This document shows, one piece after another, positions 2,888 to 33,924 of a stretch of DNA of 64,000 bases (its first letter is position 1; each line of letters begins with the position of its first letter). Origin of the DNA: Leptolyngbyaceae cyanobacterium (lineage in GTDB: Bacteria; Cyanobacteriota; Cyanobacteriia; Phormidesmidales; Phormidesmidaceae); contig CBDHHL010000032.1 in assembly GCA_965263355.1 (NCBI GenBank), positions 3,840,001 through 3,904,000 on the forward strand, written 5' to 3'. The notes under the pieces are model-generated. The model did no database searches, was not told where the DNA came from, and worked only from the letters and a program-made list of their open reading frames with translations. The position numbers and the translations under genes are program-made.

Positions 2888-2895
2888 GAGCGCTG

Positions 2896-3615: not shown

Positions 3616-3642
3616 TTTCTATCCATATTTCCCCTCCATTCC

Positions 3643-3684
3643 AATTTTGGTAGAGACGTTCCATGGAACGTCTCTACCAAAATT
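3643..3684. repeat. Perfect 42-bp palindrome, REP-like (GTAG...CTAC core)
   Basis: AATTTTGGTAGAGACGTTCCA / TGGAACGTCTCTACCAAAATT. Confidence 0.85.
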
Positions 3685-3705
3685 ATCCCTTATCCATTCC
3701 CCACT

Positions 3706-4800
3706 ATGTCCAAACCCCTTATCTCCGTCGCCATTATCGCTGCCTCCGCTGGCCTCGCCTACGCTCCTCTTCCCGGCGTTAACCAAACCATTACCATCGT
3801 CAGCGGTAGCGAGCTACAGGAACCCCTCAAACTCCTCGAAACTCGCTTTGAGCAACAAAATCCCTCAATCCAAATAAATCTTGAGTTCCAGGGCTCTCAA
3901 GATATTGTCAATAAATATATCGACGATAACAACGACTTTGAACCGACAGTTCTGATTCCTGCTAATGGACAATTGCTGGATGAACTCAGCCAACGTTGGC
4001 AGGCTCAGTATGGTGATGAACCATTTTATGAGACACCGCAGCCTATTGCCAAAACAATGCTAGTGGCTGTTTCTTGGCCAGAGCGTGCCCAGGCTTTATT
4101 TCCCGGTGGTCAGTTTCAATGGCAGCGATTAGAAGATGCCATGGCCGATGGCAGCTGGAGTAAAATTGGTGGCAATGCTGCCTGGGGCAGCTTTGACTTT
4201 GTTACCACCGATCCTACACGCTCCAACAGCGGTCAGCTTACCATGAGTCTGTGGTCTCAGGCTGAAGCGAATAGTAACAATCTCAACACCAGCGATTTTG
4301 GTAAAAATAATGTTCAAACTTTGTTTGGGTTGGTAAAACGCTCGGTTTATCAGCCTCCCCGCTCCACGGACATTTTGTTGCAAGAGTTTATTGCCCGTGG
4401 TCCCAATGATGCTGACATTGCCACAGTTTATGAGAGTATTGCCCTCCATCGTTGGGAACAGTCCAGCACTACTCAAGGCAAACCTTACCAAATTCTTTAC
4501 CTGGACCCTACCATTGAAACCGTTTCTACCGCAGCCATTGTGCGCCGTGATGTGAGTGGTGGTGAGGCCAAAGCCGCCCGTTCGTTTATCGATTTTCTGA
4601 TCGCTCCAGAACAACAGGCCGTTTTTGTACAGCATGGTTTTCGCCCCATGAATGCCAACGTTGACCTAAATTCTGTTCCCAATAGTCCCTGGGGTCAAAA
4701 CATTCCTGGAGCGATGACGGATCCTAATGGACGTGTAAGTGCTCCCCCAGATCGTACGGTTGTAGAAGAAGTGATTCGTCAGTGGCAACGGGCCAACTGA
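3706..4800 (+). CDS. Extracellular solute-binding domain protein, paralogous to the N-terminal part of 1157..2887
   Basis: Signal/anchor N-terminus; shared GS-x-D, PTRSNSG and YES motifs. Confidence 0.8.
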   Translation: MSKPLISVAIIAASAGLAYAPLPGVNQTITIVSGSELQEPLKLLETRFEQQNPSIQINLEFQGSQDIVNKYIDDNNDFEPTVLIPANGQLLDELSQRWQAQYGDEPFYETPQPIAKTMLVAVSWPERAQALFPGGQFQWQRLEDAMADGSWSKIGGNAAWGSFDFVTTDPTRSNSGQLTMSLWSQAEANSNNLNTSDFGKNNVQTLFGLVKRSVYQPPRSTDILLQEFIARGPNDADIATVYESIALHRWEQSSTTQGKPYQILYLDPTIETVSTAAIVRRDVSGGEAKAARSFIDFLIAPEQQAVFVQHGFRPMNANVDLNSVPNSPWGQNIPGAMTDPNGRVSAPPDRTVVEEVIRQWQRAN

Positions 4801-4823: not shown

Positions 4824-6596
4824 CTAATCAACTTGAGCCCGAAACCTGACAAAACCGTAGGCCCCTGTCGGATCATTAGAGGCGGAGGGCACATCTCCCA
4901 CATTGACTACAATAAATCCGTTATCTTGGGTTTGGCTTCCCTGGGTTAAATCGTAACGGCAGTAGCTTAACGAATCACTATTATTAGCAATGTACGCTCC
5001 TAGATCAAGATCTTCTGCGTTAGTCAGACTTTGCTCACCGCTGTTACGTCCCAACATAATACCGGTATCTGTAGCAAATGCATTCTCTACAAAGGTGAGA
5101 TAGTCAGGAATGCGATCACACAGTCGAAAATCTTGTGCCACTGTGCCCCCATTGGAAAGAAAATAAATGGTGTATTCAATTTCATCTCCCGGTTCTACAC
5201 TAATGCCATTGACAACTCCACTCAGATAGTTAGCTGGCCACTCTGGTGCATTATCATCGTCATCGGGATCGCCCACATCCACATAAGTACTATCAAATAA
5301 TTGTTCATCAGCCTGCCCCCGATTGATTGCTGTAATTCTTTTAACTAAAGCCATTTGGGGCTTTTCTGACGGCTCAAATGGAAAATTAATATTTAAAATA
5401 TCTGTTGTCAAAAGTGTTACCTGACGCGGATTTGTTTGGGATACCTCTACATCCCCTCCACCATAGATAAGCCCCTCTAGTTCTGGATCAGTTTCATCAA
5501 TATCCACCCAGTAAGTTTCATTCTCTGCCAGGTTGGCAAATAAATACTGTCCACTATTTTGAGTCGCTTGCGTCTCAATTAGTAAATCGTCACCGTTGGT
5601 TTCTAGAATATTGTCGCCATCATCTTTGTAGAGCGTAACTGTTACCTCATCTAATCCGCTCTCACTATTATTCAATAAGTCATCTCGACTCCCATCTTCA
5701 AAGGCAGTACCACTAATTTGGCAACCAGCTGCCATGCCTGAGGTCAGAAAGATAGACTGAGTGGCTCCGCCATCCAGGGGGACACCTACTGCATAGGTGA
5801 TTTGGGTGGTGTCAATAAACATATTTTGATAATCAACCACAATCCGATTGCTAGTTTCATCCTCTGATGGGTTGGGACCTAGTTGTTGGGTATTGGATGA
5901 GTTCGAGTTATCGGTGGAAGATGGGTCATCAGCGAAAGAATGTTTATTACCCAAGAGACTCTCTACCAGAATAGAGCCAGTATAGGTATTGGTAGAGCTA
6001 ATGGATGTTCCGTTTAAAGAACTCTCAACTTCAAGGATGTCACGAAAGCGTACATTACTGTTAACATACTGACTATCGATATCTCCAACCAATATACGAC
6101 TACTACCAATTGGACGATTATAATCAATCTCCAAAACCCAGGAATCACCAGGTTCTCCTTTTCGTTCTGTCAGCTTTGGGGTTCTAAGCCCTGTTTCTGG
6201 GTCGGTAAACTCAATGAAAAAGATATCTGGATCATTGCCGGAGGCCACGAACTGACCACTATTGTTGTTAATGGCCACCGTACGTAAGGTGGCTGTAGTA
6301 CCATCTGGAGCTGTTGCAGTCCACACCGTATCCACTGAATATTTAGCTGCAGGATTGCTACCTCCAGTCATGCCAAAGGGAGCACGATCGGGTACAAAGT
6401 CTCCAAATAAGGTATTGTGGCAGCTTAAGGAAATAGGGGCTTGAGGGGAAGTATCAGGTAATGCCTCCAGGGGAAAAGTCGCTTGGGCCGGTGATGCTAT
6501 GATTAATGTAGCCACAATACTCGTTGCCAGCGCTAAAGAATGGGCAGCGGCCATTTTCCCGTTTCTTATCTTTTTTAATGACTGCAGTCTGTCCAT
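4824..6596 (-). CDS. Secreted protein with SdrD B-like domain and C-terminal DUF11-like domain (candidate tip subunit)
   Basis: Signal peptide (..ASPAQA); ISGTAFED..E-x-GL-x-x-VTVTLY SdrD B-like; LVKRIT..PGDEIEYTI..CDRIP; ends GFVRFRAQVD. Confidence 0.75.
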   Translation of the reverse strand: MDRLQSLKKIRNGKMAAAHSLALATSIVATLIIASPAQATFPLEALPDTSPQAPISLSCHNTLFGDFVPDRAPFGMTGGSNPAAKYSVDTVWTATAPDGTTATLRTVAINNNSGQFVASGNDPDIFFIEFTDPETGLRTPKLTERKGEPGDSWVLEIDYNRPIGSSRILVGDIDSQYVNSNVRFRDILEVESSLNGTSISSTNTYTGSILVESLLGNKHSFADDPSSTDNSNSSNTQQLGPNPSEDETSNRIVVDYQNMFIDTTQITYAVGVPLDGGATQSIFLTSGMAAGCQISGTAFEDGSRDDLLNNSESGLDEVTVTLYKDDGDNILETNGDDLLIETQATQNSGQYLFANLAENETYWVDIDETDPELEGLIYGGGDVEVSQTNPRQVTLLTTDILNINFPFEPSEKPQMALVKRITAINRGQADEQLFDSTYVDVGDPDDDDNAPEWPANYLSGVVNGISVEPGDEIEYTIYFLSNGGTVAQDFRLCDRIPDYLTFVENAFATDTGIMLGRNSGEQSLTNAEDLDLGAYIANNSDSLSYCRYDLTQGSQTQDNGFIVVNVGDVPSASNDPTGAYGFVRFRAQVD

Positions 6597-6675
6597 GATT
6601 CTACCGTTTTTCTGGAGAAAGCAATTTTGAGAGCAACAGGGACTAGCCTGCTACACCATGAAGGTCAGGAAAGAA

Positions 6676-8781
6676 TTAGGGTTCAACTTGTAAATCTGTT
6701 TCTTGATTCACAAAAGAAATCTCAATGCCGCGTATATCGCTAAACACGAATTCCACCCGTCGATTGCGTGCATAGTTAATTCGGTCGGTTTCATCCACCA
6801 GTAGCTCAGTCTCACCAAAAGATCGAATGGTCATCCGCTCGGGGGCAATTCCCTTTTGTATGAGATACCGTCGTGCATTGTTGGCCCGACGCTCAGCTAG
6901 GTCCTGGTTGTAGGCCACACTTGCTCTGGAGTCAGTATGCCCGTGTAAATCAACAACTATCGATGGATATTGCCTCATTATTGACGCAATTTGGTTTAAA
7001 ATCACCGCACTGTCAGGATTAATAAAATCTTCGTCGAGGCCATAGTGGACATTGCGAGGGACCTGGAGATGGAGGATTTCTGGTTCGGGAGAGGGGGAGA
7101 GGGGGGGAGTGGGGGGAGTGGTACATTCAACAGATACCATGGGGGTGGGCCTCATGCGGTTGGGGCGAGTAGTGCTGGTTTCACCGAGAGCAACGACAGT
7201 CGTATTAAGGGCAGGTTCAGAGGTGCCGTAATCTGGATCGGTGGAAATACCACTGATAACATCACCTGGTTGTAGATCTGTCGACGTATAACTAAAGGTA
7301 CCGTTCTCTTGCACATTTACCGTAGTAAGGGGTTTGGTGAGGGGACCATAGTCTCCTGTATTTCCTTGGGTGAGATAAAGCTGTATTGTGGAACCCACAT
7401 CAGCCTTACCCTGGACCACCACCTGACCATCAATTGCAAAGAACTCAGGACTATCAAACTGGGGTGGATTGATAGCGCTGTTGCCGGTATCTCGTCGCCG
7501 CTGGTGGGAATCACGCAGTGGATTAGGACCATCCCCTCGCTGAAAGTCTTGTACACCTCGATTCCGACGGGTATTGAGGTCAATGCTCAACCCTTCTAAA
7601 TTCTCAAAGTGATTGTTCTCAATTATATTGCGCTGGCTGTGGGTATGAGCTCCCTGACTAAAGGCAGTCACCACTACACCAGGGCCTTTTTGATTGGCAA
7701 TGTGATTGTCCATTATCCGGTGGTCATTACCCATCAAGTAAATGGCTGCCCGTCGCAGACGCTGACCATTAAAACGCATGTCGTTGTTGCTAATCTCTAC
7801 AGCTCCCTGGGGTTTAAACAGGAAGATCCCACTACCGTCATTACCACACATCAAATTTCCACTAATCAGACTATTATCAATGTGGCCTTCCAAACGAATG
7901 GCATCGGGCATCCCCGCTAAGCCATTGTTAACAATGAGGTTCTCAACAATTTCTAAATTCTCAGCTCGGACTCCGGTAATTACTCCACTGCCATCGTGAT
8001 ATGAAATACGATTGTGATGTAGTTTTACCCCTTGACTATTGAAGACAGATATCCCAAAGGCAGAGGGCTGTTTTGGGATACTGTTATCTGCTGGAATACC
8101 GATCCAGTTTTGTTCGATAACAATTCCCTGGGGTGGGTGATTCTCGTCATAAAAAGAGAGATGACTAGCAGGGAGAAACTGCTGGCTAGTATCCAGTTGA
8201 GGTGATTCGTGGGCGATAAAAATATCTGCTGGTGGCGTTGACTCAGTTGCTTTGTGCTCTGAGGTAAACCCGTACAAACTGAAGCCACGAATTGTAATGT
8301 CATCTGCGACGATAGTTAAGCCCCGAAATACTTCAGCATCATTGGCAGGTGTGATTTCTACTACTGGAATCGCCACTAAAATTTCTGCTGTGGCTGATTT
8401 GGTGGCGTCATAACCGGGTTGTGTTGTTCCATCGATGGTGAGTCCAGGCTGGGCTAGGACCGGTAATAGTGACTGCAACTCAATGGTGGTGTTGCCAGTA
8501 GGCAGGTCAAAGGTAATGACTGAATTATCTGAGTTAGGGGTAACTTGTTGCTGTTCTGCATCGCTCAGGTCAGCGGTGGTCAAAGTGCCGTTGGTGATTG
8601 AGATCGCTTCTCGCAAGGTAAGTTGATCATCTACGGTGATCGGTCCATCCTGGGCACTGTTCACCGTAATGTGCACCTTAGGCAAATGAGTATTTTCCAG
8701 GGTTTGGGCGGTAGCCGCCGTAGCCACTGTTGCCAAGAGTAGAGATGTTGCTAAGGTTCGAATAGGTTGACAATGGATCAT
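6676..8781 (-). CDS. Right-handed beta-helix protein with C-terminal OmpA-like peptidoglycan-binding domain
   Basis: LTLREAI motif and Asn-rich beta-helix repeats; GHTDSRASVAYNQDLAERRA and NRRVE OmpA motifs; ATG 8781 gives a clean signal peptide (ORF track starts at 8877). Confidence 0.85.
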   Translation of the reverse strand: MIHCQPIRTLATSLLLATVATAATAQTLENTHLPKVHITVNSAQDGPITVDDQLTLREAISITNGTLTTADLSDAEQQQVTPNSDNSVITFDLPTGNTTIELQSLLPVLAQPGLTIDGTTQPGYDATKSATAEILVAIPVVEITPANDAEVFRGLTIVADDITIRGFSLYGFTSEHKATESTPPADIFIAHESPQLDTSQQFLPASHLSFYDENHPPQGIVIEQNWIGIPADNSIPKQPSAFGISVFNSQGVKLHHNRISYHDGSGVITGVRAENLEIVENLIVNNGLAGMPDAIRLEGHIDNSLISGNLMCGNDGSGIFLFKPQGAVEISNNDMRFNGQRLRRAAIYLMGNDHRIMDNHIANQKGPGVVVTAFSQGAHTHSQRNIIENNHFENLEGLSIDLNTRRNRGVQDFQRGDGPNPLRDSHQRRRDTGNSAINPPQFDSPEFFAIDGQVVVQGKADVGSTIQLYLTQGNTGDYGPLTKPLTTVNVQENGTFSYTSTDLQPGDVISGISTDPDYGTSEPALNTTVVALGETSTTRPNRMRPTPMVSVECTTPPTPPLSPSPEPEILHLQVPRNVHYGLDEDFINPDSAVILNQIASIMRQYPSIVVDLHGHTDSRASVAYNQDLAERRANNARRYLIQKGIAPERMTIRSFGETELLVDETDRINYARNRRVEFVFSDIRGIEISFVNQETDLQVEP

Positions 8782-8839
8782 GGCTCTAGCCTCTGCAGCA
8801 TCAAGTGAACGGAGAAATAGTTGCGTGAAAAAAATAATT

Positions 8840-11800
8840 TCATAGTGCTTGACCTTTAATAGACTCATTGGTTGCATCTATGTCTTCGTTATTCTCGATT
8901 ACATTTTCATCTAGTTCTAAATCTTCAGATAACTCTTCGGGAGATGTGCTTGGTATGGAGACTTGGCCTGGAAAGAGGATGTTGGTGGTATCTTCAAAGA
9001 AAATGGCTGGTTCCTCAGGTTCTAACGTAGATTCTTGTTGTTGTTCTGGCGCAATATCTTGTAGTCCAAAGCCATCAAATAAGCTATTAATCTTTGCTGA
9101 TACACCTAGGTAAAAACCACTGGCCGAGCGGTTTACACCAAAATCATCATCGTAGGCACCGCCACCGCTGTAGCCTCCATAAATTCTCATGTTAGGTGTA
9201 GGATAGTAACCAGCTTCTATGGCATAACCTATTTCGTTATAATCGCCTAATCCTCCAGCCCAACGGGCTTCAGCACTCATGTCCCAGCTGTAGCCAAACC
9301 TGTAGGTTGCTCTTAACTGGGCTAAGTGCAAGCTGTTGTTGGAAACAAAGTCACCGCCTTCATCAGTGGGCAAATTAATTTTAGTTTGACTATGACGAAA
9401 GGCATACTTGCCGTAAAATTCCCATTGCCAGTTGGGAGCATAGATAGCCTCGGCTGAGAACAAATGCTCAGCTGTGTCGATGCTGCGGCCAAATAGTGCA
9501 TTAGTGGGTAAAGTCCCCGGATTAATACGATGTTCATATCGCATAAGCGCATTGAATCGGTCATCGTTTGGATCACGATAGGCCAGACCTAGCTTTAGAT
9601 TGCTAGTGGTACCAATATTACTAATGCCCTGATTTGCGGCCCTATTGAGCTGATAGTTGAATAATGCACTGACAGCAGGTGTGAGTCGTCCCACCGCTGA
9701 TGCATTAAACGTCGTATTGGAGTTTTCGGAAGAGTCACGGTGCTCAAATCGGGCACTGGCTTGCAAATCTGGGTTATCCGTATAGGATAGTCCGACGGTA
9801 TAGGTATTGCCGTTAGTCAGTCCAAGAGATGACCCACCCGTGCCTACGGCAAAAGGCTGACTAAATTGAGAGCCTGCAGCGGTACCCCCAAGGATGCTGT
9901 TAAAGGTGCGTTCATACCCCAAGTCGAGTCGCAGACCAGGGCTCAGATTAAATCCATGTTCAATACCGATAGATCCTCCCAGGTGTTGCCCATCGATACT
10001 ACTGAATCGTCCACGGAGTGTCGTATCTTCGCCCAATGAATGTTCTCCAGAAATATCAAAAATGGTGTAAGAGTCGCGATCGCTCAATCCTTCATCCCCA
10101 TAAAATACTTGGCCTAATGCCAGGTTTATACCCGGCATAAATTCCCAATCAAGGCCAAAGAATGTTCGACTGGGGTAAAGAGGGTCGCTATCGGATGAAA
10201 GATTGAGTTCATTTTGAGCTCGCAGAGTGAGCTTATTGGTTAGGCGGGTGGTTAAGCGAGTCCGTAATTGATCAGAACTGGTGGTTAGTTGGTCAGGATT
10301 GGTACGGTCGGTGCGATCGCGATGAATCCAATCAAACTCCAGATTAGAATCGCCTAGACGCTGGGCTAGCCCTAGTGAGTAAGTTGTCAGGGAATTGTCT
10401 ACTTGTCTTCCAGGTACTGGATTCTGGCCAGGTTCTAACAAATCTTCAAGATTGGTAATGGGGCGTGGCGCTACTCCGTTATTATCCTCATGGTCAAACT
10501 GAGCACGAAGTGTGGTGTTACGGCTGACCTTGATATTGGCCTGGACTCCATAGCGGGTCTGTCCCGGAACAAAACTGGTGGTGGCGGCATTGGTAAATCC
10601 GGCGTCAGTAGAGCGCCAATAGGCCCGACCATTTAACCAATCACCCACTGCACCGTCTAGCTCCACACGATAGGCCGATCCACTAATGGGGCCAGACAAG
10701 TCAAAGTCACTTTCTGAATGGGCTACCTCAGCTATCAGACGACTGCTTTCTCCTAAAGAGATCTGGGCATCGGCACCAAATAGAGTAAAGTTTCGACTTC
10801 CCTGATTTTCTCGGAGGTAAGACGTGCCTAGCCAGGACGCTTGATTAAGATCACGGTTAAAGTTGTACTGCAACCGCCCAGCTAAAATATTGGTATTAGT
10901 GTTTTCCCCTTCATACTGGTAGGTAACCACAATCCGGCGTACTAAGACTGTCCCAAAGTCACCCACTGCCGTTTGGGCTACCGGATCTTCAAACAGCAGG
11001 GTGCCACGATCGTAGTCGATGTCATAGTCTGTGTTGCGATGTAAACGCTCCCGTTCGATGACAGTCCCTGGTCGATCTAGTTCTTCGGTTTCGATATAGA
11101 CTTGTTCACTCCCGGAGATCACTAATCGTCGTGAGAGAAAGTAGAGACCGCTGGTGCCATCTGGGGCAATGGTGTCGCGTTGAAAGCCTTCAACGTTATC
11201 ACCATAAAAACCTGTGATTGCTAGATCTCCCAGGTTATAATTCAGCTTAAAGCCATGGAGCTGGCGCGACGTGGACGTAAATAACTGAGATGAATTAGCG
11301 AATTCTTCGGTGTTATAATCTCCCCACATAATATAGTCGGCAGTTGCACCTTCTACAGGTGAGGTTCTTTCTAACCGCAGGTATAAATTGTCGGTAGAGG
11401 GGGTGGTAACATCCATAGTTGAGTCGTCACCATATACCGGATAGAGATTGGTACAACTCCCTGAACTTTGACGAAATAGTGCTGTTTCGCCACGGCAATC
11501 TTCGTTGAGGGCGCGATCACTATTAAATGCTCCAGTTAACAACCACTCACCAACATTACCCATGGTAAAGAGAGAGGCATCTAGATCAAGGCCATAGGCA
11601 TTGTCGCCATCTGGTGGTAAAAAATCTCGTAAACTGTCATGGAAATTCGTCCCCCGTGCGCCAAATCGTAAATCAACAATGCCCGTGGCAATACTGGGGC
11701 GTTGGGGAGTAATGAATTGTACCTGGTTAAAGGCTTCTAATCCATTGCTGGCAGCTTGTAATTGTACTATGTGGGCGTCAAGTGATGACTGCAACTCCGC

Positions 11801-12904
11801 TGTAAAACGTCCATTTTTGGCTTCTACCTGGAAACCTGGTTGGTCAGCTACATGATCTACCCCAACAAATTCACCATCGCTAGAGTTAAGGGTGACAATA
11901 GCATCCCAGTTAGATATATTACCATTGCTGTCTAGTAATTGTCCCTGTAGTGTAGTCGTTGAGCGTCCATCTGCCGGAATTTTTGATTCACGAGTATGGA
12001 GCGTCATCTCGGTAGGGGCTCCTCGCACTTCAACTGTAGTTGATTGCAATATACTACTGTCACTGCTACGTAGCACCGTTATAGTGTTAGTCCCCTCTGT
12101 CAAGGGGACACCATACCAGGTCTGGGTGACTAAATTAGTGGCAGGATCAGTTTCGGTGCGACCAATTGAGTCGTCATTGACGGTGTTATCATTCACTTGT
12201 AGTTGAATGTTGGCACCAGTTGGAAAGCGAACAATGACTGTGATAGCAGGTACATCGACCACACTGTCTGATGTCGGATTTACGATTTCAACTTGGTTTT
12301 CTGATATAATTTGAGAGAAACTATGGGTAGACTCAGCAGTAAGTGCTTCTGTCTTAGAAATTTCTTCCTCTAATGGAACATCTGTGAGATTTGCTAGAGT
12401 TTCGGTAGAAGTAAAGTCGTGGGTAGACGATACTTCTGTCGTACTCAATAGAGTAGATTCATTAAGTGTGATCGTCTCAGCTGAGGTTGGCCTGGCTGAA
12501 CTTGACAACTTTGGTGCTAGTAGAGTTTGGGAGGCTGTTTCTTGACTAAGTTTATGTTCCGACCCTACCTTAGGTGGAGAGGCATAGGCCAAGCTACTGA
12601 ATGCAATAGTTGATAGTGCTACTGAGCTACCTAGAAGAGTTTTTAATTGTCGGGGAGATAGTTTATAAGGTAGAGGATTTACCCTCTCTAATTTTGATCT
12701 TAGTAGTGAAATAAATCTTGTTTCTGGATTGATTGTTTTGTTGTTGTTAAGCAAAAAGCTTAACAGCTCAGTCCTTGACTTTAAAGAGGACGTGGATACT
12801 GTTTTTTTATCTCTCGCTCCCCTCTGAGTGTTGATTTGCTGTTTTAGATTGATAACAGCTAGAAGCTTTAAGTAGGAGCTTTTAGGATTTTGGTTGGATG
12901 ACAT
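8840..12904 (-). CDS. Large outer-membrane beta-barrel protein with N-terminal Ig-like domains
   Basis: IPADGRSTT Big-1-like Ig motif; LYPVYGDDS motif; long C-terminal run of alternating amphipathic beta-strands; start overlaps the upstream stop (TAATG). Confidence 0.75.
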   Translation of the reverse strand: MSSNQNPKSSYLKLLAVINLKQQINTQRGARDKKTVSTSSLKSRTELLSFLLNNNKTINPETRFISLLRSKLERVNPLPYKLSPRQLKTLLGSSVALSTIAFSSLAYASPPKVGSEHKLSQETASQTLLAPKLSSSARPTSAETITLNESTLLSTTEVSSTHDFTSTETLANLTDVPLEEEISKTEALTAESTHSFSQIISENQVEIVNPTSDSVVDVPAITVIVRFPTGANIQLQVNDNTVNDDSIGRTETDPATNLVTQTWYGVPLTEGTNTITVLRSSDSSILQSTTVEVRGAPTEMTLHTRESKIPADGRSTTTLQGQLLDSNGNISNWDAIVTLNSSDGEFVGVDHVADQPGFQVEAKNGRFTAELQSSLDAHIVQLQAASNGLEAFNQVQFITPQRPSIATGIVDLRFGARGTNFHDSLRDFLPPDGDNAYGLDLDASLFTMGNVGEWLLTGAFNSDRALNEDCRGETALFRQSSGSCTNLYPVYGDDSTMDVTTPSTDNLYLRLERTSPVEGATADYIMWGDYNTEEFANSSQLFTSTSRQLHGFKLNYNLGDLAITGFYGDNVEGFQRDTIAPDGTSGLYFLSRRLVISGSEQVYIETEELDRPGTVIERERLHRNTDYDIDYDRGTLLFEDPVAQTAVGDFGTVLVRRIVVTYQYEGENTNTNILAGRLQYNFNRDLNQASWLGTSYLRENQGSRNFTLFGADAQISLGESSRLIAEVAHSESDFDLSGPISGSAYRVELDGAVGDWLNGRAYWRSTDAGFTNAATTSFVPGQTRYGVQANIKVSRNTTLRAQFDHEDNNGVAPRPITNLEDLLEPGQNPVPGRQVDNSLTTYSLGLAQRLGDSNLEFDWIHRDRTDRTNPDQLTTSSDQLRTRLTTRLTNKLTLRAQNELNLSSDSDPLYPSRTFFGLDWEFMPGINLALGQVFYGDEGLSDRDSYTIFDISGEHSLGEDTTLRGRFSSIDGQHLGGSIGIEHGFNLSPGLRLDLGYERTFNSILGGTAAGSQFSQPFAVGTGGSSLGLTNGNTYTVGLSYTDNPDLQASARFEHRDSSENSNTTFNASAVGRLTPAVSALFNYQLNRAANQGISNIGTTSNLKLGLAYRDPNDDRFNALMRYEHRINPGTLPTNALFGRSIDTAEHLFSAEAIYAPNWQWEFYGKYAFRHSQTKINLPTDEGGDFVSNNSLHLAQLRATYRFGYSWDMSAEARWAGGLGDYNEIGYAIEAGYYPTPNMRIYGGYSGGGAYDDDFGVNRSASGFYLGVSAKINSLFDGFGLQDIAPEQQQESTLEPEEPAIFFEDTTNILFPGQVSIPSTSPEELSEDLELDENVIENNEDIDATNESIKGQAL

Positions 12905-14451
12905 TATTGGACTTTCTCCTGGAACGTGGGCGTGACGCCAAAGTTCATGCGCACCATGCCACCGGGAGCAATATTTACCATCCGAGACTGGCTGTTGCGT
13001 TCTTTAAAGTAAAGGTTGGGAGCCAGGGTATAACCAGGTAAGCTGGTTAAATCCAGAACTCCGCTACGGGTACCTGGTAACATGCACTGGACTGAGTACA
13101 AACCATCAGCATCGGTAACAATGCGATTGCCATCGTCTAAGAAGATCACAGCATTGGGGACACCGGCTTCACCTGGCTGTTGTTCCCCATCAAAGTTTTT
13201 GTCAACAAAGACACGGCCAATTAATGTGGCACAGTCTGTGAGAATACCTGGGTCAATGACGAGTCGGTGAATACTCGGGCCATCTTGTACAAAGAGTTGA
13301 TTGTCGCTGCGCTCAGCTGTAACCAATGCGGAGTTCTCGCCATCGCCTCGCAGGGCATCCGGCGTGACTTGTACGGCGTAAAGTACACTCATCGACGTAT
13401 CCACGGGTAGGGGAACTGTCGTTGTAAAGGTGACTTCAGAGCCAGATGCTTGGGCATCCATGGCAACAGTTTGCTCGTTTAGGACTCCGGTAACGGATTC
13501 GGGAATGAGTTGAAAACCTTGGGGGAGAAAGTCCTGAACCGTAACGGAATCTAGTTCAATATCGGTTAGATTGCGTAATTCTAAGCGATAGACAACGGTG
13601 TCACCCGGCTGAGCTGCAGCACGGTCAGCTGTTTTTGTAATACTAATTTGGTTTGGATCGCACATCACCATACCGAAGGCCAGAGAAAACAGGTTGAGTC
13701 CCTGGGTTTCGGCATTAAAAATTTCGACAACAGTTTCGCTGATTTGTTCACCACCACTGGTACTGATTGGAATGCCATCTAACGCAGTTGCGGTATAGCG
13801 AATGATGGAGCTGTTAACGCCGTCGGCACTGGTTACAAGCTCCAATTTGATGCGACGTTGGGGGTATACAGAATCTGCTGGCGGATTGACCACTAGAATA
13901 TATTGAGCGTCTGTGCTGGTTTGAGTGAATCCTGCATTAACGGCGCTTTGCAAGGGGGTTTCTGGATCAAATAAGAAGTTATATTGTCCAGCATCGGCAT
14001 TGGTTAAGAAAAATGGATTGCTGTTCTCTGTGTTGGGAGCTTTACCACCAGGAATGCTATTATTTTCAATGTCAGGTAGTTCTGTCCCTGTGAGGGGAAC
14101 GATGGGACCTAAGTCTAAGCCACTGGCATCAGGCTCATATAAAGCAACAGAAAAACCGTCATAATTTGGTAATAAATCTCCGTTACAACCTAAAATTTGA
14201 CCTAGTGGATCGATCAGGGAACTGGTTTCAACTATGATCTCTGCGGATACACCACCCAGCGTAATGTTGAGATCGCCATCTCGATATTGGTAGGTAGCCT
14301 GATTGTAAATTTCACCAGCTCTTGCGATCTCAACAAATGATGCCTGACTAACGCTGCATGCTAGCAAAAACGCTACCATGCTATGGGGCCATCTGTGCTT
14401 GGCACCTAGTTTTAGTTTGGGTGACTGAAATAATTTCATTATGAACCTCAA
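12904..14451 (-). CDS. Secreted DUF11 + SdrD B-like domain protein (candidate base/adaptor)
   Basis: ITKTADR..PGDTVVYRL..N..VQDFLPQG..ENSA complete DUF11; IGRVFVDKNFDGEQQPGEAGVP; N-terminal IYNQATYQY. Confidence 0.8.
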   Translation of the reverse strand: MRFIMKLFQSPKLKLGAKHRWPHSMVAFLLACSVSQASFVEIARAGEIYNQATYQYRDGDLNITLGGVSAEIIVETSSLIDPLGQILGCNGDLLPNYDGFSVALYEPDASGLDLGPIVPLTGTELPDIENNSIPGGKAPNTENSNPFFLTNADAGQYNFLFDPETPLQSAVNAGFTQTSTDAQYILVVNPPADSVYPQRRIKLELVTSADGVNSSIIRYTATALDGIPISTSGGEQISETVVEIFNAETQGLNLFSLAFGMVMCDPNQISITKTADRAAAQPGDTVVYRLELRNLTDIELDSVTVQDFLPQGFQLIPESVTGVLNEQTVAMDAQASGSEVTFTTTVPLPVDTSMSVLYAVQVTPDALRGDGENSALVTAERSDNQLFVQDGPSIHRLVIDPGILTDCATLIGRVFVDKNFDGEQQPGEAGVPNAVIFLDDGNRIVTDADGLYSVQCMLPGTRSGVLDLTSLPGYTLAPNLYFKERNSQSRMVNIAPGGMVRMNFGVTPTFQEKVQ

Positions 14452-14738
14452 CCCTAAACAATTAAAAAATTAGCGTTAGTAACAGTTTTGCCTGTTGCGA
14501 TAGTGCAAGCGCTGACTTGTCAGTTTTTGCATTAGAAGAGGCAATTAGTCAGGTCGCTGTTATCAGTGAAATGCCACTGACTACTCACCATTGTTTGACC
14601 AAATTTTTGCGTGAGCGCTCAGTCGAATGCTCAGGTCAAGCTTGCTATCCACAAGAATGAGTGTGATGCAAGCCTAGAGAAGACTTTTCTAAAGCAGCCA
14701 GAGTATTGATACGTAAAGCCTTAATTATGGAAATGTTG

Positions 14739-14774
14739 AAAGAAAAGCATGGGAGGAGAAGATGCCCCTCCCAT
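14739..14774 (-). terminator. Intrinsic terminator after the 14784..15365 gene
   Basis: ATGGGAGG/CCTCCCAT stem followed on the minus strand by GCTTTTCTTT. Confidence 0.65.
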
Positions 14775-14783
14775 AGTCAAGAG

Positions 14784-15365
14784 TTACTTGACTTTAACGT
14801 TGTATGACGCTCTAACAGATTGTGCGGAAGCTAGATCGTCGCCGAAGTTCCACTGGATGTGCGTATACATTTCAGCAGGTGCAGGTTGCAGCTCAACCGT
14901 ACCATCGGGCAGGGTAACTTCAATCAGAGGCTCAGTCACAAAACTTTGGCCACCATCAATGCTGTAAACAATTTCAGCGCTGCTATCAGTATTAGCTGAA
15001 TTAAGAATATAGCTTGTTTGGTTAGGTACAGGCTGAGTGACAGATAGCCCTTTGGCCTCAATATCACCAGAGTTAGCACCATCAACCATGTAACGTAGAA
15101 CATCACCAGGTTGAACGGTAACTTTACCTTCAAGGGCTTCCCAAGAGATTTTCTCCTGGCCATTGGTGTCTAACTTAACAAGTTGTTTTTCTGCGCTTAG
15201 CGTTAGTTTGACCTCAGGGCGCAGTACAGCTTGAACAATGGCTTCCTTAACTTCCTGTAGCTGAGCCATTACAGGTTGATTGCTAGCAAAAGGGATAGCT
15301 CCTACTAAAGCCAATGCCCCTAGACCCAACAAAAGACGTTGCTTGGCAAAAAGACGTCGCATCAT
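14784..15365 (-). CDS. Small secreted single DUF11-like domain protein
   Basis: Signal peptide; VQPGDVLRY..N-x-G, YSIDGG, YTHIQW; ends YNVKVK. Confidence 0.8.
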   Translation of the reverse strand: MMRRLFAKQRLLLGLGALALVGAIPFASNQPVMAQLQEVKEAIVQAVLRPEVKLTLSAEKQLVKLDTNGQEKISWEALEGKVTVQPGDVLRYMVDGANSGDIEAKGLSVTQPVPNQTSYILNSANTDSSAEIVYSIDGGQSFVTEPLIEVTLPDGTVELQPAPAEMYTHIQWNFGDDLASAQSVRASYNVKVK

Positions 15366-15472
15366 AATTATTCTCGTTTAATTCTAAAGATTGTGTACGG
15401 TTCAAGGTCTAACCTTGGAGCAAGGGGCCAACTTCATCAGAGAATTTCCTTACTCCAGGAAATATATTAGGG

Positions 15473-18130
15473 TTAGTTAATTCGACGCTCAAACTCAACG
15501 TAGCCAGACTCTAAGGGCTCGACATCACCATCCACTTTAAAGACGTACTTAGTCGTGTCTGTGTTGTAAGATGTGCCCGAGAGTTCAGTTGTTGGTGTCG
15601 CTACATCTGGGTTAAACGCAGGTAAATCGCTAGCGTTGCAGACTTCGCTACCATTAAAGAACAAGACAGTACCGGTTGACCCATCGTCTAGGTTAGTCAA
15701 GTCAACTGAATTTTGTACATGGCGAGTGTCAAGATCGCCATTGGCATCGTTATCGTAGGCCCAGTTGTTAGCATCGGTAGCCGCCGCTGGACAACCCAGC
15801 TCTGTACCATCCTCAAGGATGGTTAGGTCAGATGCAGTCAACAAGACGTTGCCCTGCATAGGCGCAATCTCAGCTTCAGAGATGTTGCGATAGGTAACGC
15901 GATAACGAATGTGGTTACCCGGAGCAGGATTACCCGAGACTTCTGGACCATCACCACGAACAACCTGAGCAGTTTTCACAAGTTCTAAGAACCCCGTGTA
16001 AACCCGGTCAATGGTGATGTTTTCGGTTGTTGATGTATCTAAGACATTGGTAATGTCGGTGGTGTCAATGCCGTCATTATCGCTGCCAACGTCCTCAGCC
16101 TGAACCGCACTGACACCTGCAAAGGTGGCTACGATAGGTATAGGGAAGCTATCTAACTCCGTAATAACAGCCGGGTCGTTGGGTAAGTCAACCTCAACAC
16201 CGTAGTCAAATTCATCATCGCCGCCAGGTACCCCATCATTAGCGCGGATTGGCACAATAATGTCAGGATCAGTTAAAGTAGTCTTGCCCCAATTAGCACC
16301 ATTGTAGATGTATTCAACTCGAGTACCATCAGGTGCAATGATGGTAGCTGTTGTATTGTCAGGTAGTGCAGCCGGGTCATCCGGTGTAATTGGCTCTAGG
16401 CGAACCCAACCATCTTCAGTGCCAGAGTTGTCAACAGTATTGGTGAACTCAACGACAGGTGGATTACCATCAGAATAGGGAGCGGACTTATTGGTGAAGT
16501 CATCGTTAGTACCCGTAGGACCAACTGCATCAGGTGCTCCATCAGGACCATTCAACAGGTCAGCAACAGGTTCGGGTACTAGAGTGACAACAATGGCTTC
16601 ACCATCACCGTCAGTATTGTCACCTGTGTTGTCATCACCAGGGACAGTGGGGGTATTGCCGCCAGGGTCAATCCCTTGCTCAAGTAAGTCCGTGGGATCC
16701 TCGATATAACCGTCACCGGGCGTGAATCCCTCAGGTAGAGGTGTTGCAGGATCATCAATCACATCAGGATTGAAGTTGCTATAGGTGTCGGTATCGGGGT
16801 CGTAGTTACTGGGCGTGTCGTCACCAGATTCATCCATGACCGGAAAGCTGAGAGACTCGTCCTCTGGAGTTAGGGGATCGTCAACAACACCTGAACCGAA
16901 AACCTGAGCAATGTTAGCGACGGTGATGGGGGCAGCTGTCGGATCAACTCCATCGGTAACCACAGTTATTTGGAAACCGGTTACAGAAGTGCTACGTGGG
17001 ATTGCCGTGTTAGCAGGACCGATAAAACCAACTCGGGTGGCACCTGCTGGGTTAGTAGACCAAGTTGCTTCAAGGGCACTCGTTGTTAATGGATCAGAAG
17101 TATAGACGACACTCCAACCTGCTGCAGGGGTGGGAGGAGTAGGACTTAGAGAAGTGCCGTCCGGAATGGCGTCAGATACTAGTACATGTCTGTCGCTCAA
17201 TCCATTGAGCGTTATAGGCTGTAGATCAGCCGCTTGGGCGTCACTGCCAGCTGGGACTCCATTGTTATCTAGAACGTCAAATTCAAGGTCATAGGTGATG
17301 GTGTCATCTAGGGGATCCGCATTACCTTGGTCACTATAGTCGTTGATGGACTTCTTCAGTTCAACCAAAGGCTGCTCAAGGGGCTCTTCACCAATCGTGA
17401 TTTCACCCGTTGCACTGGCTTCACGCTCACCGTTAGTCGGTGCCTCAGGACCTGCTTCTTCTGCAGTCTGACTACCATTAGCAACGTCAGTAGCATCGTT
17501 GTCATCTGTGAAGACACTACCTCCAGAGGAGTCGTAGGGCTGGTTTTGACCATCGCCAGGCGTATCACCATATTGAACGCTGACGATATCATCGTTTTGC
17601 GCACTGGTGGAGACCTGAACAATCACCTGAACATTAAATGAGTCCCCAGGCGCAATGTTTTCTACGTCTGTTCGATTCGCAATGTCAGTTTCGTAGGTGC
17701 CATCGCCGTCTAAGTCAGCTCTGATGCTAACAACACTATCTACAGGACCAGTGAAATCAGCTACAGCAGGTAAACTAATGTCAGTTTCATCGTTACCGAC
17801 GTTCGTGACTTCAAAAATGTATTCTAGTTGCTCACCAGGGCCTGGAGGATCTGCGTCTGGTGTGACTTCTTGAGCAGCGGTGTTAACAACGGTAATACCA
17901 GCAATCTCAGCTACTTCGACCACAACTGTATTTGAGGTCGAAGTCTGAGGTGTACCATCGGGGTCACGATAGGTAGCAGTCGCAGTGTTGGTGATTTGTG
18001 TGCCAGCAGCAGTGCCATTTGCCAGTACAACACCCACTAGGTTAAACACACCGCCAATGGCAAGTGCGGATGCAATGACTGGCTTACAAAGCTTCCAGCT
18101 TAGTCTCTTAGAACTTATATTCTTTGTCAT
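15473..18130 (-). CDS. Large acidic secreted DUF11-repeat surface protein (candidate major fibre subunit)
   Basis: Signal peptide ending VLA; GTAAGTQITNTATATY mature N-terminus; several DUF11-like modules; Asp-rich loops such as DLDGDG. Confidence 0.8.
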   Translation of the reverse strand: MTKNISSKRLSWKLCKPVIASALAIGGVFNLVGVVLANGTAAGTQITNTATATYRDPDGTPQTSTSNTVVVEVAEIAGITVVNTAAQEVTPDADPPGPGEQLEYIFEVTNVGNDETDISLPAVADFTGPVDSVVSIRADLDGDGTYETDIANRTDVENIAPGDSFNVQVIVQVSTSAQNDDIVSVQYGDTPGDGQNQPYDSSGGSVFTDDNDATDVANGSQTAEEAGPEAPTNGEREASATGEITIGEEPLEQPLVELKKSINDYSDQGNADPLDDTITYDLEFDVLDNNGVPAGSDAQAADLQPITLNGLSDRHVLVSDAIPDGTSLSPTPPTPAAGWSVVYTSDPLTTSALEATWSTNPAGATRVGFIGPANTAIPRSTSVTGFQITVVTDGVDPTAAPITVANIAQVFGSGVVDDPLTPEDESLSFPVMDESGDDTPSNYDPDTDTYSNFNPDVIDDPATPLPEGFTPGDGYIEDPTDLLEQGIDPGGNTPTVPGDDNTGDNTDGDGEAIVVTLVPEPVADLLNGPDGAPDAVGPTGTNDDFTNKSAPYSDGNPPVVEFTNTVDNSGTEDGWVRLEPITPDDPAALPDNTTATIIAPDGTRVEYIYNGANWGKTTLTDPDIIVPIRANDGVPGGDDEFDYGVEVDLPNDPAVITELDSFPIPIVATFAGVSAVQAEDVGSDNDGIDTTDITNVLDTSTTENITIDRVYTGFLELVKTAQVVRGDGPEVSGNPAPGNHIRYRVTYRNISEAEIAPMQGNVLLTASDLTILEDGTELGCPAAATDANNWAYDNDANGDLDTRHVQNSVDLTNLDDGSTGTVLFFNGSEVCNASDLPAFNPDVATPTTELSGTSYNTDTTKYVFKVDGDVEPLESGYVEFERRIN

Positions 18131-22631: not shown

Positions 22632-22639
22632 GGAGAACG

Positions 22640-32803: not shown

Positions 32804-32895
32804 TGATCAGCCAGTGAAGTCTTTTGTGTGTGTTGCCAGCCGAGCTAAATTTTTTACACTCTCGGCTTTATTATCCGGATCAGGGACATTTATTC

Positions 32896-33894: not shown

Positions 33895-33924
33895 GCCCGC
33901 TAGGATAAGAAAACGCTGGCTAAT

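Follow-up and report, generated by a model that had tools for sequence, protein, structure and literature searches.

DUF11 domains have been described as CnaA-like, not CnaB-like, and CnaA-like bonds as connecting the first and penultimate strands, which lie in opposing sheets (PMC12617251); the same source predicts a triad K264/D326/N415 in Q8YS00, the seed protein of the DUF7925 family. Here we describe a six-gene cluster from a marine cyanobacterium in which complementary halves of one DUF11/CLIPPER (CnaA-like) domain are split over the encoded proteins. As read from sequence, this pattern is real and lies far above chance expectation, and the locus probably specifies a surface fibre that assembles itself through trans-complementation of the split domain. 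The original prediction had proposed such complementary halves, and these were confirmed, with key residues invariant among orthologues; two of its details have to be revised, since the donor is a two-strand hairpin instead of a single strand, and the chemistry expected of DUF11 is CnaA-like (PMC12617251) instead of CnaB-type. Public annotation lists such genes as “DUF11 domain-containing protein”, “hypothetical protein” or “TonB-dependent receptor”, and a literature search found no paper describing a pilus of this kind.

The cluster occupies positions 4824-18130 on the minus strand of the window, the 64,000-nucleotide stretch of DNA that was analysed. An ORF check recovered all six co-oriented genes for exported proteins exactly where they had been placed, and a signal-peptide-like N-terminus was judged by eye to be present in each product; in p733, p590 and p1354 the listed ORF has an N-terminal extension ahead of this segment. 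The stop of p515 and the start codon of the barrel gene (p1354) overlap at position 12904, and p733 shares 38 nt with the barrel gene, an arrangement that suggests translational coupling of both pairs. Directly behind the p193 stop, inside the 332-nt gap ahead of p515, lies a terminator-like hairpin (14748-14775, minus strand; 11-bp stem, six G-C pairs and a T-rich tail; a consensus match only), which may give the pilin and p193 a higher dose than the base and barrel genes. Usher, PapD-like chaperone, sortase and pilus ATPase families found no match among the Pfam-scanned ORFs of the window, which outside the cluster were those of at least about 240 aa at 1157-4800 and 18835-23386 and of at least 160 aa beyond 23.4 kb.

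The proposed shaft subunit, p885 (15473-18130, minus strand), is made up of a signal peptide, an N-terminal hairpin, about four Ig-like domains and a truncated C-terminal domain, and carries both the donor and the acceptor half expected of it. The donor hairpin (residues 43-80, ...TQITNTATATYRDPDG...TSNTVVVEVAEIAGITV; 17891-18004, minus strand) consists of two strands bearing N48 and N67. Residues I46, N48, A50, T51, T53, Y54, D56, S66, N67 and V69 are invariant in all 58 p885 orthologues, and the hairpin ranks first of 812 38-residue windows of the protein for conservation (0.84 vs 0.55 overall). Domain 2 (Pfam residues 256-443; 16802-17365, minus strand) is a complete CnaA-like module with a DUF7925 match (E 3e-49) and a predicted intramolecular isopeptide triad K260/D320/N406, each residue of which is kept in 57 of the 58 orthologues; its fold matches the Gram-positive pilins BcpA (Z 9.8) and SpaD (9.3) as well as CLIPPER 9ifr (9.5). 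The truncated C-terminal acceptor domain (residues 701-885; 15476-16030, minus strand) retains K719, E773/D774 and G775 and ends as ...F-x-F-x-R-x-V-N without the Asn strands, the N-x-A strand being absent. K719 is kept in 58/58 orthologues, and position 773 is Glu in 55 and Asp in three; K719 as the bond Lys and N48 as the bond Asn were assigned through motif comparison by eye. Similarity of this domain to the other acceptor domains is weak (hhalign 29-42%).

Structure prediction supports docking of the two halves of p885. In the AF2 monomer (mean pLDDT 82.7) the C-terminal domain is predicted at pLDDT 85-95 even without the hairpin, so that an open groove is only presumed. The hairpin itself reaches only 46-67 and does not pack onto its neighbouring domain; such packing would have spoken against its role as donor. 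When the C-terminal domain was folded together with the hairpin, the predicted complex gave a median ipSAE of 0.86, compared with 0.00 for the best of three controls; of 157 solved complexes 116 attain the mark used for this score, as do 2 of 215 mismatched pairs, counts that are approximate here, with our own alignment used. At least 88% of contacts agreed between repeat runs, and the pLDDT of the partner rose to at least 81. The hairpin has the Lys strand on one side and the acid strand on the other, with donor strand 1 (residues 50-55) antiparallel to 766-772 and donor strand 2 alongside the Lys strand 713-721, a placement that fits the position of the bond in CnaA-like domains. The listed contacts include K719-S66, N48-Y743 and N48-N788, and K719-N48 is not among them. 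Since no related solved structure was found by sequence, the score is unlikely to stem from model memory. The folded pairing is p885 with p885; the p590/p885 and p885/p515 pairings are putative.

The remaining proteins divide the two halves between them. The proposed tip, p590 (4824-6596, minus strand), joins a variable head to a conserved acceptor domain (residues ~410-590; 4827-5369), with its Lys in ALVKRIT and its Asp in CDRIP; it scores above the TIGR01451 cut-off (27.8 bits) and does not pass Pfam DUF11. Related C-domains close 61 ORFs of 489-1951 aa with variable heads in 49 loci, and Lys and Asp are kept in 62/62 domains. The donor-hairpin profile has no match in the p590 of the window, in keeping with its prediction as acceptor only. 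The same holds for 52/61 p590-type proteins; nine of the 61, in other genomes, do carry the hairpin, so being a tip is no fixed property of the family. Conversely, the proposed base subunit p515 (12904-14451, minus strand) was correctly predicted as a donor: its hairpin (residues ~46-76, GEIYNQATYQYRDGD...SAEIIVET; 14224-14316, minus strand) keeps N50-x-A52...Y56 in 65/65 orthologues, and the donor-hairpin profile matches p515 orthologues. It is followed by a CnaB-like domain, a complete DUF11 (Pfam 4.6e-11; TIGR01451 49.7 bits, cut-off 24) with K273/D307/N373 each kept in 65/65 orthologues, and an SdrD_B-like domain. This DUF11 and domain 2 of p885 are the modules that show the full pattern K...D-x-(L/I)P...N-x-A. 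The 193-aa protein p193 (14784-15365, minus strand) is indeed a lone truncated DUF11-like domain (TIGR01451 24.7 bits, above cut-off; Pfam DUF11 not passed), with one amendment to the prediction: the catalytic Asp is replaced by Gln (Q111) in 66/66 orthologues. It aligns by hhalign at 95% with the DUF11 domain of p515 and at 91% with the C-domain of p590, and the catalytic acid positions of all three correspond through homology to the complete p515 module (hhalign 83-95%). Without that Asp, p193 fits the role of a non-covalent cap or chaperone, probably for donor hairpins, better than that of a subunit.

The gene order p885-p193-p515-barrel is conserved without exception (58 of 58) in related cyanobacterial loci whose upstream DNA reaches 6.5 kb or more, so that donor-only, acceptor-only and donor-plus-acceptor proteins recur in fixed order. 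Where the downstream DNA extends for at least 6 kb, 48 of 58 loci include a p590-type ORF. The outer-membrane protein p1354 (8840-12904, minus strand) comprises a low-complexity N-region, Ig-like domains (~205-397; a Big_1/invasin-D3-like domain stays below cut-off) and a giant C-terminal beta-barrel (residues ~400-1290; 9035-11707, minus strand). No barrel family, including TonB_dep_Rec and Plug, was matched in Pfam. The AF2 model of residues 400-1300 (pLDDT 81.1, pTM 0.76) shows more than 32 long strands, and its structural matches are generic (SlpA Z 15.8, AlgE 15.8, FimD 15.3); at E up to 0.001, 1659 cluster representatives were matched. The neighbouring p733 (6676-8877, minus strand), a right-handed beta-helix with an Ig-like domain and a C-terminal OmpA peptidoglycan-binding domain (residues 619-706; 6760-7023; Pfam 9.2e-17), is present in 30 of 63 related loci and missing from about half.

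In distant relatives DUF11, SdrD_B, OmpA (or three SLH domains), Ig and barrel form one polypeptide, which also opens with an N-terminal hairpin; the OmpA domain lies inside the barrel polypeptide in P0196 and P0214, and the three SLH domains in P0180. Residues 269-508 of p515 align with 410-644 of P0196 (E 2e-15), and, judged by this alignment, p515 is the N-terminal part of the barrel protein split off as a separate chain. As the OmpA domain lies between base module and barrel in the fused forms, the membrane topology of the base is uncertain. Metagenome cassettes run hairpin pilin, p193 homologue, second pilin, fused barrel: p193 homologues adjoin the distant fused barrels in 53/80 loci, and 63 small hairpin-bearing ORFs stand beside them in 41/80, with a consensus that ends as a K...D-x-IP domain without Asn strands.

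Our best reading is a fibre of the form tip(p590)-[p885]n-base(p515), with the barrel as its root and a tie to peptidoglycan, and the computational tests able to refute the underlying donor/acceptor model supported that model. Once exported by Sec, p885 would lack the two final strands of its last domain, and these would be supplied by the hairpin at the mature N-terminus of the next subunit; such complementation between chains we regard as likely. The incoming Asn48 would be placed beside the acceptor Lys719 and Glu773, the residue types of an autocatalytic Lys-Asn isopeptide triad, in which case the joint would probably be locked with no need for a sortase; overall, a covalent lock at the joints has about an even chance. 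The p590-type proteins, with variable head, acceptor and no hairpin, would serve as distal tips or adhesins, and p515, with hairpin and no acceptor, would close the proximal end, forming with p1354 and the OmpA protein p733 an envelope anchor and probably also the export pore. Lacking the catalytic acid, the acceptor-like p193 may act in the periplasm as a chaperone, or as a minimal cap, that holds hairpins non-covalently. That the product is a surface fibre is the reading we lean towards.

Complementation could also be non-covalent, as in chaperone-usher pili, with Lys, Asn and Glu as structural leftovers of an ancestral isopeptide domain. K719 does contact S66 and not N48 in the predicted complex, relatives of p193 exist without Lys and without the acid, and oligomers of BsaA N35A are reported to remain SDS-stable although the bond is absent (PMC11580942). 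We nonetheless consider this unlikely, given that K719, N48 and N67 (58/58) and E773 (55/58) persist even though the more distant, Nostocales-type orthologues share only ~35-40% identity overall, that p590-type domains all keep Lys and Asp (62/62) as does the consensus of the small distant pilins, and that p193 is the lone family member to have lost the acid. A circular permutation, in which the hairpin completes the C-domain of its own chain and p885 is a closed monomeric adhesin, would account for the presence of both halves in p885 and in the small distant pilins, and a two-chain fold is blind to cis versus trans; it is improbable in view of the proteins that can be satisfied only in trans, being either donors alone (p515, fused barrels) or acceptors alone (p193, 52/61 p590-type), and of the undocked hairpin in the monomer (pLDDT 46-67).

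That these are ordinary monomeric DUF11 fibrillar adhesins beside an unrelated porin and OmpA protein agrees with current annotation names, but is already disfavoured and highly improbable, considering the fixed gene order (58/58), the base/OmpA/barrel fusions, the split-domain complementarity and the lack of a TonB_dep_Rec or Plug match in the barrel. An envelope-internal tether or scaffold that spans the periplasm and joins outer membrane and peptidoglycan, instead of an external fibre, would suit the OmpA or SLH domains between base module and barrel, and the barrel is matched best by SlpA of Deinococcus, an SLH-bearing protein that connects outer membrane and peptidoglycan (Foldseek E 3e-11, TM only 0.23). 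The variable p590-type heads resemble exposed adhesins, the p885 domains are similar to surface pilins, and the barrel, at more than 32 strands, far exceeds what an anchor requires, all of which makes this reading very improbable. Finally, the C-domain may chiefly be a sorting or secretion signal on independent cargo adhesins, as its position at the extreme C-terminus of variable-headed proteins (489-1951 aa), the constant proximity of the giant barrel and the presence of SprA among the barrel matches might suggest. This would leave the invariant hairpin, Lys and acid without a role and the complex score (0.86 vs 0.00) unexplained, SprA scores no higher than generic barrels, and the T9SS C-terminal-domain family (NCBIfam) has no match in the cluster proteins, which makes it distinctly improbable as the chief function. 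Sorting and complementation can nevertheless both hold. In the sorting reading the giant barrel would recognise the C-domain, as SprA/PorV recognise the T9SS C-terminal domain.

On its sequence patterns and predicted structures, the six-gene cluster probably belongs with the donor-strand, self-locking fibres. What is established is a pattern of complementary domain halves, its conservation, synteny, a set of gene fusions and one predicted interface; the tip–shaft–base reading of the original prediction, in which subunits are joined by donor hairpins and acceptor domains, is supported by every computational test available, p885/p885 being the one interface predicted.

An ORF check of the window found the six reading frames where they had been placed, all on the minus strand. 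Named by product length in amino acids, they are p885 (15473–18130), p193 (14784–15365), p515 (12904–14451), the barrel protein p1354 (8840–12904), p733 (6676–8877) and p590 (4824–6596). Each product has a signal-peptide-like N-terminus, as judged by eye, and the C-termini of the cluster proteins read ...FERRIN, ...RAQVD and ...NVKVK. The stop of p515 overlaps the start of p1354 at 12904, and p1354 and p733 share 38 nt, which together suggest translational coupling. A terminator-like hairpin with an 11-bp stem (14775–14748, minus strand) lies in the 332-nt gap after p193 and would set the output of pilin and p193 above that of the base components. Sigma-70-like sites were rarer than in shuffled sequence (16 observed versus 23.4), and no promoter is claimed.

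Profile searches assigned DUF7925 (PF25546) to residues 256–443 of p885 (E = 3e-49), and found no match of its C-terminal domain to either DUF11 profile (Pfam PF01345, TIGR01451). DUF11 was recognised in p515 (E = 4.6e-11; PF01345 43.5 bits, cut-off 24.6; TIGR01451 49.7 bits, cut-off 24) beside an SdrD_B-like region, while p193 and p590 exceeded the TIGR01451 cut-off only (24.7 and 27.8 bits against 24) and stayed under that of Pfam DUF11. p733 combines beta-helix/NosD, Ig and OmpA domains (OmpA E = 9.2e-17). In p1354 there were sub-threshold Big_1/invasin-D3 matches, and no barrel family was matched among Pfam and NCBIfam profiles. The claimed absence of usher, sortase and ATPase held for the ORFs scanned, whether inside the cluster, beside it or farther out in the window: no family of usher, sortase, pilus ATPase or PapD chaperone was matched.

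Directly upstream of p885 lies a gene for a GAF and HisKA protein with no ATPase-domain match (18835–20292, minus strand), and beyond it a divergent Ser/Thr protein kinase gene (20625–22631, plus strand); both are possible regulators of the operon. The GAF–HisKA gene has homologues at the same place in 18 of the 74 related loci; every one of these 18 is Leptolyngbya- or Phormidesmis-like. On the p590 side, a 576-aa protein with a periplasmic solute-binding domain and a C-terminal von Willebrand A domain (1157–2887, plus strand) is followed by a 239-aa ORF and by a second solute-binding protein adjoining p590, a neighbourhood that recurs in no more than two or three of the related loci (L007, L012 and, weakly, L035). 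Elsewhere in the window, an Rfam 5_ureB_sRNA match (28863–29149, minus strand; 104 bits, E = 2.8e-26) falls on the antisense strand of the gene for the urease alpha subunit (28708–30417, plus strand), and probably reflects urease coding conservation rather than a cyanobacterial sRNA. The plus-strand arrangement at 31634–36228, two ORFs without a Pfam match (389 and 356 aa) and then a TgpA-like transglutaminase membrane protein (767 aa), recalls MoxR/DUF58/TgpA clusters. The region 43656–50430, which opens with a tRNA gene (43656–43727), continues with an HSDR_N fragment and a YhcG/DUF1016 nuclease and includes about 4 kb (46.2–50.4 kb) with no ORF longer than 152 aa, may be a decayed integrated element.

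The full module of the cluster reads, in order, Lys strand ... PG(D) ... Y ... D-x-(L/I)P ... N-x-A ... last strand. p515, the proposed base, has the whole module internally, with the Lys/acid/Asn triad of an autocatalytic isopeptide (K273, D307 and N373) in one domain of one chain and each residue present in 65/65 orthologues. A second whole module forms domain 2 of p885, the proposed shaft subunit (K260, D320 and N406; each 57/58). The corresponding K/D/N of the DUF7925 seed protein constitute a predicted intramolecular isopeptide triad in the available text of PMC12617251, and those of p885 domain 2 are predicted to be their equivalents. The terminal domains of p885, of p590 (the proposed tip) and of p193 (the proposed cap or chaperone) all lack the Asn strands, and none has the triad within one chain. 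The last domain of p885 retains the Lys strand (K719, 58/58), the PG-x-I-x-Y strand and an acid at E773 (55 Glu and 3 Asp), followed by D774 (53/58) and G775 (58/58), and ends in ...F-x-F-x-R-x-V-N without any N-x-A strand. The two missing strands stand at the mature N-terminus of the same protein, as I46-x-N48-x-A50-T51-x-T53-Y54-x-D56 and S66-N67-x-V69 (each 58/58), and this hairpin is the most conserved 38-residue window of p885 (rank 1 of 812; mean top-residue frequency 0.84 versus 0.55 overall). Distant, Nostocales-type orthologues of p885 show about 35–40% identity.

The N-terminal segment of p515 is of the same kind (N50, A52 and Y56 in 65/65), and p515 has no truncated domain. Truncated end domains of the p590 type keep their Lys (LLVKRIT) and Asp (C-D-x-I/V-P) in 62/62 members of the family, and a hairpin search of the window's p590 returned no donor; p193 is a single truncated domain and nothing more. 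The observation of complementary halves was confirmed, with conserved residues on both donor and acceptor across orthologues. Profile comparison was needed because BLASTP among the three acceptor domains was nearly blank (p590 C-domain against that of p885, E = 0.39; against p193, E = 5e-5). With acid positions aligned, it linked p193 to the p515 DUF11 domain at 95%, and the p590 C-domain to p193 at 91% and to the p515 DUF11 domain at 83%; the p885 C-domain was linked weakly to the other acceptor domains (29–42%).

An AF2 model of mature p885 from 58 sequences had a mean pLDDT of 82.7 and a pTM of 0.47; in this monomer the hairpin had pLDDT 46–67 and the nine-stranded C-domain 85–95. Domain 2 matched the folds of BcpA (3kpt; Z 9.8, rmsd 2.8, 128 residues aligned), CLIPPER (9ifr; Z 9.5) and SpaD (Z 9.3). 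Domain 3 matched PorA-N (Z 10.1) and, weakly, PapD-like folds (Z 8.4), the latter resemblance being a common Ig arrangement. A PDB search with the p885 profile gave no match, and so no related solved structure by sequence. The expectation that a truncated C-domain would pair with an N-terminal peptide was borne out for the sole pair folded, the p885 C-domain (residues 696–885) with the p885 hairpin (residues 37–81): ipSAE was 0.86, 0.86 and 0.88, the best of three controls scored 0.00, contact agreement between runs was at least 88% and partner pLDDT at least 81. The score mark is reached by 116/157 solved complexes and 2/215 mismatched pairs, and is only a rough guide here, as a custom alignment was used.

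In the predicted complex, donor strand 1 (50–55) lies antiparallel to 766–772 and donor strand 2 (64–74) runs along the Lys strand 713–721. The contact list, which carries no coordinates, pairs K719 with S66, N48 with Y743 and N788, and T47 with N789; the register of the listed pairs (i + j constant) would set N48 opposite G775 and diagonal to E773. The conserved Asn of the donor and the conserved Lys and acid of the acceptor fall within the predicted interface, as judged from contacts rather than from a Lys–Asn distance. CnaA-like bonds, in the available text of PMC12617251, run from the first strand of the domain to the penultimate one, which lies in the opposing sheet, a rule with which the modelled hairpin placement agrees.

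p193 differs from the other acceptors at the catalytic-Asp position, which is Gln in 66/66 cyanobacterial sequences, with the Lys kept in 65/66; among distant homologues Asn predominates at this position, with Asp in some, and the Lys is not conserved. An acceptor unable to catalyse the bond could bind hairpins reversibly, and the sequence fits a putative role for p193 as their chaperone or cap. No other small component of the cassette is as well conserved, and solely cyanobacterial names appear among the best 120 matches to its profile.

More than 1513 close relatives of the p1354 barrel were found, and a one-genome-per-species scan returned 497 barrel relatives. Of the 74 loci kept, 72 are named cyanobacterial and 2 'uncultured bacterium'; strains of Nostoc, Calothrix and Leptolyngbya are among them. 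The core gene order proved conserved: p885<p193<p515<barrel, on one strand, recurs in 58/58 loci with at least 6.5 kb upstream. One to three p590-type ORFs of 489–1951 aa accompany it in 48 of 58 loci with at least 6 kb downstream; altogether 61 such ORFs from 49 loci have variable heads and the p590-type domain as their last ~190 residues. The donor hairpin is absent from 52/61 and present in 9/61, which suggests that the p590 family consists of tips and, in some genomes, of additional donor-and-acceptor (adaptor) subunits. Hairpin-bearing members (loci L004, L005, L006, L025, L029, L030, L043 and L062; E = 1e-9 to 1e-14) usually come from loci with two or three p590-type genes. A p733-like gene is present in 30/63 loci.

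The AF2 model of p1354 residues 400–1300 (72 sequences; pLDDT 81.1, pTM 0.76) has more than 32 long strands. Matches were generic, with SlpA at E = 3e-11 and TM 0.23 in Foldseek, and SlpA at 15.8, AlgE at 15.8, FimD at 15.3 and porins at about 14 in VIA; none stood out, and a named barrel family was therefore not assigned. The sole match of the barrel profile in a PDB sequence search was the Ig-like domain of GH2 enzymes, and the ESM Atlas likened the barrel to unnamed outer-membrane proteins of ~850 aa (score 0.97, a lead only). Many p1354 homologues carry the NCBI label 'TonB-dependent receptor'. This identity was rejected, as no Plug or TonB_dep_Rec profile matched and TonB-dependent transporters appear only among generic barrel folds, and the naming is likely a systematic misannotation. 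The first ~85 codons of p1354 (12650–12904, minus strand) encode a polar extension of ~85 residues ahead of the signal-peptide-like segment (...SSVALSTIAFSSLAYA), and close relatives align from residue 1–6; the sequence suggests either a correct start with an unusually long leader or a true start at an internal non-ATG codon.

An exhaustive search (E up to 0.001) brought the barrel family to 1659 cluster representatives. Distant relatives, with about 30% identity and lengths of 800–2860 aa, include fusions (17 scanned), which join DUF11, SdrD_B/CarboxypepD_reg, OmpA and barrel in P0196 and P0214, DUF11, three SLH domains, Ig and barrel in P0180, and DUF11, SdrD_B and barrel in P0190, P0197, P0206 and P0256. 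Residues 269–508 of p515 align (E = 2e-15) with 410–644 of P0196, a stretch that precedes the OmpA and barrel regions of the latter; from this alignment and the fusions, p515 and p1354, together with the OmpA domain of p733, are the split form of one ancestral base–barrel protein. In the fused forms OmpA sits between base module and barrel, and a G-T-x-I-x-N-x-A ... S-N-x-V hairpin comes directly after the signal peptide. When metagenomes were scanned with the fused form, 512 relatives and 80 loci were recovered; upstream of the fused gene stands a recurrent cassette of a ~330-aa hairpin pilin, a p193 homologue and a second hairpin pilin of ~360–430 aa. The p193 homologue near fused barrels reaches E = 1e-25, a short ORF at E < 1e-8 occurring in 53/80 loci, many of them incomplete. 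Small hairpin ORFs near fused barrels number 63 in 41 loci, with the consensus end K ... PG ... Y ... itD-x-iP ... F-x-V-x-I and no Asn strands.

In the proposed mechanism, exported p885 subunits would link as the N-terminal hairpin of one enters the C-domain of the preceding subunit, whereupon an autocatalytic isopeptide would probably arise from Lys719, Asn48 and Glu773. The distal end would be taken by a p590-type protein, and the hairpin of p515, as the N-terminal module of the barrel protein, would fill the last C-domain and root the fibre, with the barrel as the likely conduit and OmpA (or SLH) fastening the complex to peptidoglycan. In its most complete form, which we put forward tentatively, as possible but somewhat short of an even chance, the proposal is that the cluster is the cyanobacterial form of a diderm pilus class that is widespread and undescribed. 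A CnaA-like domain split by nature into 'tag' and 'catcher' would polymerise and autocatalytically ligate Sec-exported pilins head to tail, without sortase, ATPase or PapD/usher homologues. The fibre would pass through a giant barrel (>32 strands) and in the end be seated on it, the N-terminus of the barrel acting as the last donor, and the catalytically dead p193 would be a dedicated periplasmic chaperone holding hairpins until assembly.

Several other readings compete with this covalent pilus. Complementation might be non-covalent only, which we consider unlikely; the invariant triad argues for a bond, without proving it. That each hairpin completes the C-domain of its own chain is a good deal harder to credit, and proteins with a donor only or an acceptor only speak against such closure in cis. 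A C-domain serving as a secretion signal seems to us quite improbable, and assembly into a tether confined to the envelope, rather than a surface fibre, very improbable; least probable of all is that the six genes are unrelated neighbours.

If the covalent pilus is real, it would add one more pilus class in two-membrane bacteria, where few are known, and would unite chaperone–usher subunit logic with Gram-positive covalent chemistry while needing neither sortase nor PapD-like chaperone. It would also explain what many proteins do that now bear the names DUF11, hypothetical or 'TonB-dependent receptor' (1659 representatives; 497 among species genomes). In cyanobacteria it would amount to a conserved appendage of the cell surface whose adhesive tips can be exchanged, with a bearing on biofilms, mats and associations with sponges and algae. 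Protein engineers would gain orthogonal tag/catcher pairs of natural origin, derived from a CnaA-like domain.

Like chaperone–usher pili (FimH–FimG–FimF–FimA(n)–FimI, with FimC and FimD), the cluster has a proposed acceptor-only tip with a variable head, a donor-and-acceptor shaft and a donor-only terminator, an incomplete Ig-like domain that would be filled by the N-terminal extension of the next subunit, and a dedicated outer-membrane barrel with no ATPase. The FimD-type usher barrel has 24 strands, whereas that of the cluster is modelled with more than 32, and its FimD match (Z 15.3) lies within the 14–15.8 of SlpA, AlgE and porins. Unlike chaperone–usher pilins, the cluster would donate two strands rather than one, its Lys/Asn/acid triad suggests a covalent lock, and its base subunit either belongs to the barrel protein or has been separated from it, with a peptidoglycan-binding domain included. 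Pfam matched no PapD-like chaperone (PF00345/PF02753) in the six proteins or scanned flanks and no usher (PF00577) in the cluster, and there was no homology to Fim/Pap pilins. The predicted hairpin/C-domain complex (0.86 versus 0.00) supports a mechanism analogous to donor-strand complementation, with two strands. The chaperone–usher features are partly established knowledge and are summarised in the available part of PMC11821415.

Closer in chemistry is BsaA of Clostridium perfringens, a TasA-family protein for which the available text of PMC11580942 describes an N-terminal segment inserting as a strand in the next subunit and an Asn–Lys isopeptide, catalysed by an acceptor Glu, that locks the joint without sortase; triad mutants lose oligomers. 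The proposed joint of the cluster would resemble this 'donor-strand exchange and lock' in strand insertion and in sortase-free locking. BsaA differs in its TasA/camelysin fold, monoderm host, SipW and type IV pilus-linked secretion, and has no outer-membrane barrel or tip/base division; TasA/camelysin (Peptidase_M73) had no Pfam match in the cluster, whose folds are CnaA-like Ig domains. With the CLIPPER/DUF11 and DUF7925 adhesin domains (PDB 9IFR; available text of PMC12617251) the cluster shares the superfamily and the triad of Lys in the first strand, Asp, and Asn in the penultimate strand, complete copies being present in p515 and p885 domain 2. The described CLIPPER bond is intra-domain, in one chain, whereas the terminal domain of the cluster is divided over two, so its bond would be intermolecular; the available text of the survey mentions intermolecular bonds solely for other systems (PMC12617251).

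In sortase pili (BcpA, SpaA/SpaD, RrgB) each pilin is a row of CnaA/CnaB-like Ig domains that carry internal isopeptides, and the pilins are covalently joined head to tail; the pilins of the cluster are built in a similar way. The joint of the cluster would instead be autocatalytic, through a split domain, in a diderm host with an outer-membrane barrel, and no sortase family was matched among the ORFs scanned in the window. SpyTag/SpyCatcher are man-made CnaB splits, in which a tag with one bond residue docks as a strand in a truncated domain that carries the others and ligates spontaneously; the cluster would be a natural CnaA-like split serving polymerisation. The archaeal thread (Saci_0406) combines donor-strand complementation with an intermolecular isopeptide proposed to form without sortase, which would link Asn57 with the alpha-amine of Asp24 across subunits n and n+2, and its N-terminus after signal cleavage is highly conserved (available text of PMC9715654). 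It differs from the cluster in having no Lys/acid triad, DUF11, outer membrane or barrel.

Further candidates were rejected. For a T9SS cargo or translocon, NCBIfam gave no C-terminal-domain family, and SprA (Foldseek E = 1e-5, TM 0.13–0.21) matched no better than other barrels. For intimin/invasin, Big_1/Invasin_D3 was sub-threshold (30.3 versus 33 bits) and N-terminal of the barrel, which is giant and C-terminal, not 12-stranded and N-terminal. The CT pilus of Microcystis comes from another gene cluster, one that encodes a 12-kDa pilin together with an O-GlcNAc transferase and an FkbM methyltransferase (available part of PMC12397347). The DUF11 match of haloarchaeal tafi was to the unrelated DUF1102 (available part of PMC11821415), and Litorilinea GhlA is one DUF11 chain of 6,596 aa, not split subunits (bioRxiv 10.1101/2025.08.19.671072). 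Full-text literature searches found no description of this system, most subscription journals lying outside their coverage and absence from print thus being unproven; DUF7925, Q8YS00 and PF25546 appeared there in the CLIPPER survey alone. The system is like chaperone–usher pili in its tip/shaft/terminator division, like BsaA in its chemistry and like sortase pilins in its build, and is a member of none of them.
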